A model generated the notes under the pieces. The model was given only the letters and a program-made list of their open reading frames with translations. It was not told where the DNA came from and made no database searches. Shown here piece after piece: positions 6,651 to 8,853 of a DNA stretch of 64,000 nt. This DNA is from Escherichia phage Mizar: the sequence record PV714129.1; one strand, given 5' to 3'. A program made the translations under genes and the position numbers. The first letter of the stretch is position 1; the number at the start of each line of letters is the position of its first letter.

Positions 6651-7666
6651 TGTGTTGCCTCAATATAAAGTTCGTTGGAATATTTGACCAGCGCTTCTCT
6701 GTCTTCGTCTGAGATATCTGGAATCGCGTCAATATATTCTTTAATGATATCTTGAAGTGATTTAATCTCGATTTCCTGGTCGTCATCAGATTCAACACTG
6801 TTATCAACTTTAGAAACCATACGAAGAGAGTGAACTACTTTTTCAAGTTCAGATTCAAACTTAGTCAACTCTGAATCAATTTCTGATACTATAACACGTA
6901 CGGCTAGATTAGTATAATCAGAATAATTGATTTTGCCTTTAAATGGATAAGTGATTCGTCGATGCCATGTCGTTTCATTAGGAATAAATTCCATACGTTC
7001 AACATCAGTGTCAAATACCCAGAATCCTCGCGGGTCGTTCTCATCGCCTGCAGTAAGGGTCCATGGTGTCCCAATATATTTGACGTTAGCAGCTTCAGAG
7101 ATTGTGTGGAAGTGGCCGGACCAGACTTGTTTATAGGTCTTTAAGAAATCAGGTTCAAGCCCATGGGACTTCATTCCTTTATAGAAATAAAAGCCGTTCA
7201 GTTCCCAGTGACCAACACAATACGCGGCAGAAGAAGTCTTGATGTGCTCTAAGATTTCACCTGTATTTTCTTCACACATCCATGGAACGATATCAATCAG
7301 ACATCCGTCAAAATCTACAGTAGTTGGATGTTCGTAAATAGTAAAGTTTTCAAATTGAGTTAACAATTCAGAAACAGTGTTAGGTGTTATTGTATTCTTA
7401 AACGCCATGTCATGGTTTCCTATCGTGACATGAACGTGAATGCCTGCTTTAGAAATCATATCAACGATTTCACGATTGAATTCCATTGTACGATGTGTAA
7501 TTGCTTTACGGACGTCAAACCAATCACCGTACTGAATCCAAGTTTTAATCCCGTGTTTCTTAGAGTATTCAATTGCTTGACGAATACCATCACGTTGAAT
7601 ATCTTGAACCCATGGGTCGTCCTGTTTAACGCCGATATGGAAGTCACCTAAATGTAAAATTTTCAT
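6647..7666 (-). CDS. 47: Recombination nuclease subunit gp47 (Mre11/SbcD-like)
   Basis: MKILHLGDFHIG phosphoesterase motif; ATG overlaps the stop of the upstream small ORF. Confidence 0.9.
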   Translation of the reverse strand: MKILHLGDFHIGVKQDDPWVQDIQRDGIRQAIEYSKKHGIKTWIQYGDWFDVRKAITHRTMEFNREIVDMISKAGIHVHVTIGNHDMAFKNTITPNTVSELLTQFENFTIYEHPTTVDFDGCLIDIVPWMCEENTGEILEHIKTSSAAYCVGHWELNGFYFYKGMKSHGLEPDFLKTYKQVWSGHFHTISEAANVKYIGTPWTLTAGDENDPRGFWVFDTDVERMEFIPNETTWHRRITYPFKGKINYSDYTNLAVRVIVSEIDSELTKFESELEKVVHSLRMVSKVDNSVESDDDQEIEIKSLQDIIKEYIDAIPDISDEDREALVKYSNELYIEATQ

Positions 7667-7806
7667 AAGTCTAACGCCGTTATCGCAATGCAAAATAAAA
7701 CCACAGAAATTAATCCATCCGGGGTACTAAAGAAACCTATCCAACACGCCCTAGTGAATAGATAGAAGGCTAATATCAATATAGTCACACCTAAAAATAT
7801 AATCAT
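7663..7806 (-). CDS. Small hydrophobic protein (47 aa), translationally coupled to gene 47
   Basis: MIIFLGVTILILAFYLFTRACWIGFF...; stop TGA overlaps gene 47 ATG (ATGA). Confidence 0.4.
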   Translation of the reverse strand: MIIFLGVTILILAFYLFTRACWIGFFSTPDGLISVVLFCIAITALDL

Positions 7807-7860
7807 ATGTTTTTCCTCATTAGTTGGTTCATTTTATCATCCAGAATATAAAGCAAAAAA

Positions 7861-7879
7861 AGGAAGCACTAGGCTTCCT
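7861..7879 (-). terminator. Rho-independent terminator
   Basis: Minus strand AGGAAGC-CTAGT-GCTTCCT followed by TTTTTTT. Confidence 0.6.
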
Positions 7880-8042
7880 TTCCAATTAATACACCGTACA
7901 GAGGTTCATGAGAAGACCTGAACTTGATAGGCTTATAGGTAATAGTACCTTCATTTTCTGCTTTAATACGAGCGGCTTCAAATTGAAGTATCATCTCATT
8001 TTTATCAGATTTAATCTTATCAAAATCCATCGAATTCGTCAT
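7869..8042 (-). CDS. Small ORF (57 aa) ending inside the terminator stem
   Basis: MTNSMDFDKIKSDKNEMILQFEAARIK... preceded by AAGAGG; below the ORF-track size cutoff. Confidence 0.3.
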   Translation of the reverse strand: MTNSMDFDKIKSDKNEMILQFEAARIKAENEGTITYKPIKFRSSHEPLYGVLIGKEA

Positions 8043-8131
8043 TCATAAAACCTCTTAAACTTTTTCATATTCGTAATTCATAAGCTTAAAAATCTGGGTG
8101 TTCGTCTTTCATTAGCCACCTGTCCACGTTA

Positions 8132-8338
8132 TCATCGTTTCCACCATTTCTTAACTTGAAATGAATCAACCCACACGAGTTGTTTTGGGTCTGCCTTTAC
8201 AATAGGCGGACAAATTTCTGTAATAGAACCGTCGTGATATTCCTTTTCGGAAATTTTAACACAAAGAGGACCACCCAATTTAATGGTGAACCCTGCGTTC
8301 AGCTTCAGACGTTTAAACTTTGTTTGAACTAGCGCCAT
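8132..8338 (-). CDS. Hypothetical protein
   Basis: ORF in the minus array; start trimmed to an internal Met to limit overlap. Confidence 0.35.
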   Translation of the reverse strand: MALVQTKFKRLKLNAGFTIKLGGPLCVKISEKEYHDGSITEICPPIVKADPKQLVWVDSFQVKKWWKR

Positions 8339-8636
8339 TAATGATGTCCTCAATAGCCTGACGAGTAGTAATCCACTGGATTTTAATTAACTTGTCATTA
8401 TATGGTTGTCGTAGAATATCCCGAGATTTCTTAATAGCATATTCGTAAGCTTCGAAGTTGTTTTGAATTGCTGCTTCTTGAGCATGTGCATAAAGACGGT
8501 TTAGTTCAAAACGATTCTTTTTAAGAATCTTTTCGGATTTTTTACGTGCTTCAGCTTCATTTTTCTTTTGTATTTCTTGTAGCATTTTAGCTACTGCATC
8601 TTCTGCTTCTTTATTTTCAATAATCTCGGTAGTCAT
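8313..8636 (-). CDS. Hypothetical coiled-coil protein
   Basis: 107-aa ORF, charged helical sequence. Confidence 0.45.
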   Translation of the reverse strand: MTTEIIENKEAEDAVAKMLQEIQKKNEAEARKKSEKILKKNRFELNRLYAHAQEAAIQNNFEAYEYAIKKSRDILRQPYNDKLIKIQWITTRQAIEDIINGASSNKV

Positions 8637-8637
8637 A

Positions 8638-8853
8638 TTATCTCATTAAATTAAAATAAAAACGTCCGTCCTCTTCAATACAGAACTCGTACTCAACTGG
8701 AGTCCCATTTATCGAAAATGACACGTCATGTGGGTTCAAAGGGTCGATGTCAAAATTAATTTTAAATTCTCGACCCAACAGTTTTACCAAATAAGGGATT
8801 GCTTCGTCAAAAGGTTCTTCTAAGTAGTTAGAGATGTCAATTGTCATCCTCAT
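8638..8853 (-). CDS. Hypothetical protein
   Basis: ORF downstream of gene 55; start trimmed to an internal Met. Confidence 0.4.

Follow-up and report, generated by a model that had tools for sequence, protein, structure and literature searches.

The closest described systems to the locus studied here are phage RB69 and its relatives in the genus Mosigvirus. RB69 has no homologue of the T-even DNA glucosyltransferase genes a-gt, b-gt or ba-gt and contains arabinose (Thomas 2018, PMC6024577). In RB69 and DLP3 the modified base was identified as arabinosylated 5-hydroxycytosine and the genes of the pathway were assigned (Lee 2026, PMC13326640): a thymidylate-synthase-family 5-hydroxy-dCMP synthase (RB69 gp48), the GT-B-type arabinosyltransferases gp46:47 and gp3, and the sugar-nucleotide genes encoding RB69 gp50-55. 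Arabinosylated 5-hydroxy-dC has been measured in RB69 (PMC13326640) and in Mosigvirus NP (PMC13390438), and the cytosine of Mosigviruses is described as replaced by mono- and di-arabosylated 5-hydroxycytosine (PMC13326640, PMC13390438). That T-even glucosyltransferases are missing has been in print since 2018, and the chemistry was worked out in 2025-2026.

Here we compare these systems with the interval between genes 47 and 55 in a window of 64,000 nucleotides from Escherichia phage Mizar (PV714129.1), the whole stretch of DNA that was analysed. By sequence identity, the window comes from an RB69-type T-even relative of the genus Mosigvirus. An interval devoid of a-gt is the normal, already published layout of such phages, and it is annotated in RB69, ATK47 and ESh27 as well as in Dhakavirus CLB_P2 and Winklervirus CHI14.

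Results

Apart from one terminator/promoter spacer, the interval 7663-8853 consists of five small ORFs, all on the minus strand (Table 1). An earlier sequence-only reading had claimed that a-gt is missing between 47 and 55, and our data bear this out: the longest stop-free stretch inside the interval, whichever of the six frames is read, is 109 codons, and tblastn with T4 a-gt detected no relic of the gene up to E=10. The known enzymes set the yardstick of size: 400 aa for T4 a-gt, 351 aa for b-gt and 280 aa for ba-gt. Between 47/47.1 and a-gt.2 we found no ORF of about 400 aa, nor one reaching the minimum of about 280 aa that a T-even DNA glucosyltransferase of any type would need, and the spacer between 47.1 and a-gt.2 is 62 bp long. 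The same reading had listed the five ORFs correctly but had placed the terminator after the 57-aa ORF; it is found instead between the 47-aa and the 57-aa ORFs.

The five ORFs are genuine conserved genes and not chance ORFs, since they match PHROG or Pfam families (E 5e-13 to 5e-34) and correspond to T4 47.1 and a-gt.2 to a-gt.5 with 47-76% amino acid identity. Neither PHROG nor Pfam assigns a function to any of the five small proteins. The interval is thus the T4 arrangement minus a-gt and mobB. For 47.1, the annotation of the T4 product reads predicted membrane protein. The TGA of 47.1 and the ATG of gene 47 share the sequence ATGA (7663-7666), and through this overlap 47.1 is predicted to be translationally coupled to gene 47. 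At the other end of the interval, a-gt.5 and gene 55 overlap by 17 nt, as in T4. The program-called ORF would start gene 47 at TTG 7693, an extension that homology does not support. We also asked whether any of the small ORFs is the growth-inhibiting Mosigvirus peptide Emp (AV110 Gp94) and rejected this candidate, Emp being 109 aa long and adjoining motA; the paper describing it (bioRxiv 10.64898/2026.09.14.751387) mentions neither the a-gt.x genes nor 47.1.

Table 1. Features of the window, in order of position, with the evidence for each and the identity of the products to those of other phages
Feature	Position	Strand	Evidence	Identity
Gene 43, 5' part (DNA polymerase, first 341 aa), at left edge of window	3..1025	-	tblastn, RB69 gp43 residues 1-341	RB69 99.7%
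Gene 47 (SbcD-like recombination nuclease subunit, 339 aa, ATG at 7666)	6647..7666	-	Pfam Metallophos	RB69 100%, T4 76%, RB49 53%
47.1 orthologue, 47 aa, two hydrophobic segments	7663..7806	-	phrog_6693, E 1.6e-27	T4 gp47.1 76%
Mosaic segment relative to RB69/ATK47 (135-bp 47.1 insertion, replaced a-gt.2 allele and spacer)	7668..8131	.	blastn	
Putative MotA-dependent middle promoter for 47.1-47-46	7831..7855	-	sequence read directly	
Intrinsic-terminator-like hairpin	7857..7883	-	terminator scan and RNA fold	
a-gt.2 orthologue, 57 aa, DUF5486, divergent allele	7869..8042	-	Pfam, E 2.9e-20	Dhakavirus CLB_P2 82%, T4 58%, RB69 only 56%
a-gt.3 orthologue, 68 aa from ATG	8132..8338	-	phrog_1648, E 4.9e-34	RB69 98.5%, T4 71%
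a-gt.4 orthologue, 107 aa, DUF2654	8313..8636	-	Pfam, E 1.6e-27	RB69 99%, T4 58-60%, RB49 45%
a-gt.5 orthologue, 71 aa, DUF5491	8638..8853	-	Pfam, E 5.2e-13	RB69 100% over 69 aa, T4 47-48%, RB49 31%
Gene 55 (late sigma factor, 185 aa)	8837..9394	-	sequence identity to RB69, T4, RB49	RB69 99.5%, T4 91%, RB49 58%
Gene 1 (dNMP kinase)	46392..47126	-	96% identical to RB69p159	

Alignment by blastn to RB69 and ATK47 runs at 95% identity up to 7667 and at 99% from 8132, and within the segment between these two points only 7803-7965 aligns, at 75%. In 21 phage records this segment occurs at 90-95% identity, and in records of Dhakavirus type at 82-85%. The phage is a mosaic at 47.1/a-gt.2, carrying a segment common to Dhakavirus-type phages, a finding that we regard as mildly informative.

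The spacer between a-gt.2 and 47.1 contains a hairpin with an 11 bp stem and a T-run (-15.3 kcal/mol, z -2.6), and the stop codon of a-gt.2 (7869-7871) lies inside its loop. This putative terminator would end the transcription unit running from 55 to a-gt.2. ATK47 has an annotated terminator at this position too, and the hairpin is kept in RB69, CLB_P2, CHI14 and T4. The adjoining sequence reads TGCTTTA (7855-7849), a 12-nt spacer and TAAAAT (7836-7831), which we take to match the T4 middle-promoter consensus, with a GAGGA Shine-Dalgarno downstream at 7818-7814. On the strength of this consensus match, the element may well be active as a promoter. A generic sigma-70 scan of 7400-9600 returned no more sites than shuffled sequence did, and we did not count it as evidence.

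A second basis for the middle-promoter reading is the description of PmSL elements (PMC4122927), whose sequence features are all found here: a G+C-rich hairpin, then a TGCTT Mot box with a correctly spaced -10 box, located at a boundary of variable gene content. The combination of hairpin, TGCTTTA and -10 motif recurs across genera, in five other genomes, and T4 has the hairpin/TGCTTTA motif in two copies that flank mobB-a-gt. This pattern suggests, and we consider it mildly informative, that the hairpin/promoter motif marks the exact point at which mobB-a-gt was inserted in T4.

The interval shows a standard order that recurs in several other genera of T4 relatives (55, a-gt.5, a-gt.4, a-gt.3, a-gt.2, terminator-like hairpin, MotA-type promoter motif, 47.1, 47). 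The T4 cassette made of a-gt and mobB, the latter a homing endonuclease gene, sits at the hairpin/promoter junction, a site that here is simply unoccupied. Parsimony over a handful of genera argues that mobB-a-gt was probably gained in the T4 lineage and not lost here. The opposite course, in which the ancestor had both a-gt and mobB and Mosigvirus deleted them after a switch to arabinosylation, leaving the interval as a deletion scar, seems to us unlikely. The two T4 hairpin/TGCTTTA motifs could indeed serve as direct repeats, and a deletion between them would leave one copy, as found here. However, the single-motif state devoid of a-gt is seen in Mosigvirus, Dhakavirus and Winklervirus and, in a reduced form, in Krischvirus, while among the genomes inspected a-gt occupies the site only in T4, in linkage with the gene of a homing endonuclease; moreover, the 62-bp spacer holds no remnant of a-gt.

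The motif at 7831-7883 may have played a role in moving mobB-a-gt or 47.1. A broader proposal, which we offer tentatively and consider somewhat doubtful, is that in relatives of T4 gene cassettes would dock by recombination at this hairpin with its Mot box, where T4-type phages would have received mobB-a-gt and the present sub-lineage 47.1 and the Dhakavirus-like a-gt.2. Docking at the motif would account for its duplication on both sides of mobB-a-gt in T4. If true, modification glycosyltransferase genes would travel between genera as cassettes bounded by promoter and terminator. A term search of the 2014 PeSL/PmSL paper gave no match to the site at 7831-7883.

Eight queries (a-gt, b-gt and gp42 of T4, ba-gt of RB14, and p003, p046, p047 and p048 of RB69) were run by tblastn across the window and returned nothing below E 0.016 (for b-gt no match below E 4.8, for ba-gt none at E <=1). 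No gp42-type gene was found in the window with T4 gp42 as the query, and the 5-hydroxy-dCMP synthase, both arabinosyltransferases and the sugar-nucleotide genes are likewise not inside it. The strongest a-gt match (39262-39441, E 0.016, 27.5% over 69 aa) falls inside the orthologue of RB69 e.5 (98.6% identity), a gene that RB69 annotates as similar to a T4 gene; we dismissed this match as chance because an ORF of 207 aa cannot accommodate a GT-B enzyme and this one matches no Pfam family.

A search for a hidden glycosyltransferase found no such Pfam family in the orthologues of nrdC.3,.5,.6,.8,.10 and.11, in ORF132c, ORF134c, e.5, e.6 or others. As a side observation on these genes, nrdC.11 reads as an RlaP-type nucleotidyltransferase and nrdC.10 gives weak AAA/HTH matches. 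Coding-strand ORFs of at least 80 aa all have an RB69 or TH12 homologue, except for an 88-aa ORF and a 223-aa homing-endonuclease-like ORF, neither of which can be a glycosyltransferase.

In the relatives, the arabinosylation pathway is encoded at two sites, one from uvsX to gene 43 and the other from rIIA to gene 39, both outside the window. The left edge of the window falls within gene 43, and another 1.7 kb or so would be needed to reach the cluster position of the relatives. The end of gene 43 in TH12 is at 140494 and the orthologue of RB69p055 starts at 140538, 44 bp beyond; this genome encodes RB69 p045-p055 and p003 at 96-100% identity, including the gp48-type synthase at 98.7%. The RB69-type synthase is present at an identity of at least 95% in 153 phage records, approximately as many as those with 95-99% DNA identity to the window. 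From neighbours that are 97-100% similar, we infer that the phage studied here probably carries the cluster beyond the window edge. Inside the window, gene 1 is the only one counted in the literature among the genes of the RB69 modified-cytosine pathway, and its RB69 counterpart, RB69p159, appears as dNMPK in Table 1 of PMC13326640.

These results support the claim that the lineage does not glucosylate its DNA in the T4 manner: a-gt, b-gt, ba-gt and gp42 are not in the window, and a-gt, b-gt and ba-gt are not in the TH12 genome. One could still argue that the phage performs T4-style glucosylation of hydroxymethylcytosine with glucosyltransferase gene(s) moved outside the window, given that only 64 kb of about 170 kb are visible and that the 47.1/a-gt.2 segment shows the genome to swap modules with other genera. 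We judge this highly improbable. The three glucosyltransferase genes are nowhere in TH12 and none of them is in RB69 (PMC6024577). Furthermore, the sole match of T4 gp42 in TH12 is a 25%-identical thymidylate-synthase homologue, and the RB69 enzyme makes 5-hydroxy-dCMP, not hydroxymethyl-dCMP (PMC13326640); in a phage lacking hydroxymethylcytosine, T4-type glucosyltransferases would have no substrate.

As for the lineage, DNA identity to TH12, ESh27, ATK47 and FP43 is 96.7-97.7% (98-100% coverage, over the interval and the first 25 kb), with a best match of 97-98% in the phage collection. TH12 is the nearest relative over the first 25 kb and is collinear with the window to about 62,500. Apart from the products listed in Table 1, gp44 and gp62 are 100% and gp46 is 97% identical to those of RB69. 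The arrangement in RB49 is 47, HNH endonuclease, a-gt.4, a-gt.5, 55, devoid of 47.1, a-gt.2 and a-gt.3; in the window, we did not find the HNH gene between 47 and 55, and the latter three genes are present. The sequence-only reading had called the missing gene consistent with RB49-like phages, and this assignment does not hold.

That the phage is RB49-like (Krischvirus), with ordinary unglycosylated cytosine, and that the missing a-gt reflects no cytosine hypermodification, can be set aside: RB49 also has no a-gt between 47 and 55, but its gp47 and gp55 are only 53% and 58% identical to those studied here (100% and 99.5% for RB69), its interval is built differently, the DNA shares about 97% identity with Mosigvirus genomes and its collinearity with TH12 excludes an RB49-like character for this window, the arabinosylation cluster is present in TH12, the closest complete relative checked in full, and the RB69-type synthase in the 153 records mentioned above, and modified cytosine in at least one Krischvirus (PMC13390438) shows that the premise is not general.

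Discussion

Our preferred reading, to which we give a probability of roughly 90%, is that the interval is a Mosigvirus-type one lacking a-gt, with the mobB-a-gt site unoccupied and the arabinosyl-5-hydroxycytosine genes located elsewhere in the genome. In such a phage, the thymidylate-synthase homologue would make 5-hydroxy-dCMP, and two GT-B-type transferases, supplied by the sugar-nucleotide pathway, would add one or two arabinoses. Under this scheme a-gt would not be needed, because the lineage makes no glucosyl-hydroxymethylcytosine.

The finding itself is real, ordinary and already known, the layout being annotated in the RB69 GenBank record. Its value is mainly corrective, in that absence of a-gt at this locus does not equal unmodified DNA. 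The sequence-only reading implied unglycosylated DNA, which is wrong for the lineage, since RB69-type phages fully replace cytosine by arabinosylated 5-hydroxycytosine (PMC13326640, PMC13390438). It had also named a glucosyltransferase gene elsewhere in the genome as what would overturn it. In spirit, a glycosyltransferase of this kind exists in every close relative, but the sugar is arabinose and not glucose. Where this lineage lacks a-gt, it has another hypermodification instead, and a heavier one, arabinosyl-5-hydroxycytosine. How sensitive such phages are to restriction enzymes, to CRISPR and to type IV systems is governed by this modification, which therefore bears on phage engineering and on use in therapy; for RB69, resistance to ordinary restriction enzymes is reported.

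Compared with known systems, the interval is closest to that of RB69 (NC_004928; RB69p066-p071), with which it shares the order 47, a-gt.2, a-gt.3, a-gt.4, a-gt.5, 55, the lack of a-gt, the same hairpin/promoter spacer, and a-gt.3, a-gt.4, a-gt.5, gp47 and gp55 at 98.5-100% identity. RB69 and ATK47 differ from it in lacking 47.1 and in carrying another, 56%-identical allele of a-gt.2, whereas the Mosigviruses ESh27 and TH12 have even the 47.1 insertion in common with it. T4 (NC_000866) has 47, 47.1, a-gt.2 to a-gt.5 and 55, and agrees with the interval in their order, their orientation and the overlaps of 4 nt and 17 nt. Unlike the present interval, T4 has about 2.1 kb inserted between 47.1 and a-gt.2, made up of mobB and a-gt, with a hairpin/TGCTTTA copy on either side; here, 62 bp with one copy stand at that site. 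RB49 (Krischvirus) resembles the interval in having no a-gt between 47 and 55 and in its a-gt.4 and a-gt.5 homologues, and differs from it by the HNH gene beside 47 and by proteins that are only 31-58% identical.

The spacer is reminiscent of the PeSL/PmSL shuffling motifs of T4-type phages (PMC2839356, PMC4122927), in which a stem-loop is followed by a promoter-like motif, and, like them, it lies at a boundary where related phages differ in genes. Finally, the arabinosyl-5-hydroxycytosine pathway of RB69 and DLP3 is the same lineage's own system: gene 1 is in the window and TH12 has every assigned gene.

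Results

Between genes 47 and 55 we found five small genes, each the orthologue of a T4 gene (Table); the T4 and RB69 proteins used for comparison were taken from annotated records. Their family matches range from E = 5e-13 to 5e-34 (PHROG, Pfam), and none of these families has a known function. The sequence-only reading, which saw here only small ORFs and no alpha-glucosyltransferase gene (a-gt), was correct, with exact coordinates, since the longest stop-free stretch within 7663-8853 is 109 codons in any frame and T4 a-gt (400 aa) gave no tblastn match to the interval even at E = 10. 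The automatic ORF call for gene 47 (TTG start, 348 aa, 6647-7693) was dropped in favour of the ATG, because gp47 of both RB69 and T4 has 339 residues and because the 47.1 stop and the gene 47 start share ATGA.

Features of the 47-55 interval in window coordinates
Feature	Position	Strand	Details
gene 47	6647-7666	-	ATG at 7666, 339 aa
47.1 orthologue	7663-7806	-	47 aa, hydrophobic; phrog_6693; 76% identity to T4 47.1
GAGGA	7818-7814	-	followed by ATG of 47.1
TAAAAT	7836-7831	-	
TGCTTTA	7855-7849	-	followed by 12-nt spacer
hairpin, GGAAAGGAAGC-CTAGT-GCTTCCTTTTT	7857-7883	-	11-bp stem, T-run; -15.3 kcal/mol, z -2.6
spacer between 47.1 and a-gt.2			62 bp
a-gt.2 orthologue	7869-8042	-	57 aa; DUF5486; 58% identity to T4 a-gt.2
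a-gt.3 orthologue	8132-8338	-	68 aa, ATG at 8338; phrog_1648; 71% identity to T4 a-gt.3
a-gt.4 orthologue	8313-8636	-	107 aa; DUF2654; 58-60% identity to T4 a-gt.4
a-gt.5 orthologue	8638-8853	-	71 aa, start at 8853 or 8847; DUF5491; 47-48% identity to T4 a-gt.5
gene 55	8837-9394	-	

Over the interval, and likewise over the first 25 kb, the Mosigvirus genomes TH12, CCU7, ESh27, FP43 and ATK47 match at 96.7-97.7% identity and 98-100% coverage, and collinearity with TH12 extends to about position 62,500. Identity to RB69, T4 and RB49 is 100%, 76% and 53% for gp47, and 99.5%, 91% and 58% for gp55. These values, together with a different local gene order in RB49, refute the proposed "RB49-like" lineage. 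Compared with RB69 and ATK47, 7668-8131 is a mosaic segment: a 135-bp insertion carries 47.1, missing from both, and the a-gt.2 allele is replaced (82% amino acid identity to Dhakavirus CLB_P2, only 56% to RB69). It is common to a minority of Mosigvirus records, matching 21 records at 90-95% identity and Dhakavirus-type records at 82-85%, and is an instance of the modular exchange that is usual among T4 relatives.

Searching the window for T4 a-gt, b-gt and gp42 (dCMP hydroxymethylase), RB14 ba-gt and RB69 p003, p046, p047, p048 and p050-055 turned up no homologue, and Pfam placed none of its larger unassigned ORFs in a glycosyltransferase family. The window's left edge falls within gene 43 (residues 1-341 of its product, encoded at 3-1025, are 99.7% identical to RB69), and in the annotated RB69 record the arabinose pathway genes are those between gene 43 and uvsX. 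We searched the complete TH12 genome with the RB69 modification genes and the T4-type glucosyltransferases. TH12 carries orthologues of p045, p046, p047, p048, p050-p053 and p055 at 96-100% identity, in a cluster beginning 44 bp past gene 43, about 1.7 kb past the window's left edge, and of p003 at 99.5%; a-gt, b-gt and ba-gt are absent from the whole genome, and the sole match to T4 gp42 is the p048 orthologue (25% identity). The p048-type enzyme is at least 95% identical in 153 phage records, a number close to that of the records whose DNA is 95-99% identical to the window. Dhakavirus JS98, Serratia phage X20 and T4-like phages of Klebsiella, Enterobacter and Acinetobacter encode homologues of 61-83% identity.

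All coding-strand ORFs of at least 80 aa have an RB69 or TH12 counterpart except two. One, of 223 aa (42567-43238, minus strand), has weak NUMOD3, DUF559 and RAP matches and a PHROG homing-endonuclease match. With tRNA-Asn (gtt) it sits between tRNA-Arg (tct) and tRNA-Met (cat), the window's three tRNA genes all lying within 42506-43459; RB69 has only Arg and Met, adjacent, and the site spans 75 bp in TH12 versus 874 bp in the window. This region looks like a mobile endonuclease insertion. The other, of 88 aa (23137-23403, minus strand), corresponds to an insertion of about 300 bp relative to TH12; neither TH12 nor the first 98 kb of RB69 has a counterpart. It lies between orthologues of the conserved T4 genes nrdC.10 (22048-23085; weak AAA/STAND-NTPase and HTH matches) and nrdC.11 (23435-24424; an RlaP-type nucleotidyltransferase of the polymerase-beta family). 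DNA identity to TH12 drops to 87.5% from position 43384 on. The baseplate and short-tail-fibre genes (54304-63388) are far more diverged from RB69/TH12 (gp7 87%, gp8 89%, gp9 75%, gp10 80%, gp11 72%, gp12 65%) than the remainder (about 95-100% identical), which suggests a swapped host-recognition module.

Discussion

An interval without a-gt is usual for RB69-type phages and has already been published. RB69 has no a-gt, b-gt or ba-gt homologue; its DNA contains arabinose, and ORF003c was proposed as the arabinosyltransferase (Thomas et al. 2018, PMC6024577). Its cytosine is wholly replaced by mono- and di-arabinosylated 5-hydroxycytosine, with 5-hydroxy-dCMP made by gp48 and gp46:47 and gp3 predicted as first and second arabinosyltransferases (Lee et al. 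2026, PMC13326640). The Durham Collection paper extends this modification, by measurement, to Mosigvirus NP; of the two transferases, it maps one to the cluster of sugar genes and the second to the stretch separating rIIA from the topoisomerase gene (PMC13390438). The expectation that this phage does not glucosylate its DNA in the T4 manner holds for the gene content of the window and of TH12, but the implied absence of modification does not, as the RB69-type lineage carries arabinosylated 5-hydroxycytosine (PMC13326640, PMC13390438). Nor would "RB49-like" be a reliable sign of unmodified DNA, since one Krischvirus has modified cytosine (PMC13390438). Given the gp48 homologues in Dhakavirus JS98 and other T4-like phages, and the lack of a-gt at this locus in a Dhakavirus (CLB_P2) and a Winklervirus (CHI14) too, a 47-55 interval lacking a-gt may go along with the 5-hydroxycytosine type of modification.

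The terminator noted earlier in the interval is present, although between the 47-aa and 57-aa ORFs, with the stop codon of the latter inside the hairpin, and not between the 57-aa ORF and the three other small ORFs. Judged by motif, the spacer fits a terminator closing the transcription unit from 55 to a-gt.2, with a MotA-type middle promoter behind it that would serve 47.1-47-46; the consensus applied to TGCTTTA and TAAAAT is established for T4. Such a combination of stem-loop and middle promoter has been named PmSL (PMC4122927). It is kept at the same position in RB69, ATK47, ESh27, CLB_P2 and Winklervirus CHI14.

T4 has the genes of this interval in identical order, plus a-gt and the homing endonuclease gene mobB between 47.1 and a-gt.2; when the two are compared directly, about 2.1 kb of T4 correspond to about 46 bp here. 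The motif occurs twice in T4, after a-gt.2 and after a-gt, bracketing mobB-a-gt in the manner of direct repeats flanking a cassette; the hairpin plus (T/A)GCTTTATA lies at 12586-12640 and 14684-14750 of the T4 sequence L004 and once in the window. Most simply, the window would show this site unoccupied, and T4 would have gained the mobB-a-gt cassette there. The opposite direction, deletion of mobB-a-gt between the two repeats, appears unlikely to us. Besides T4, with its presumed gain, the known systems compare as follows: the RB69 record reads 47, a-gt.2, a-gt.3, a-gt.4, a-gt.5, 55, without a-gt; RB49 has 47, an HNH endonuclease, a-gt.4, a-gt.5 and 55; and Dhakavirus CLB_P2 and Winklervirus CHI14, likewise without a-gt between 47 and 55, share the layout of the window, 47.1 included.
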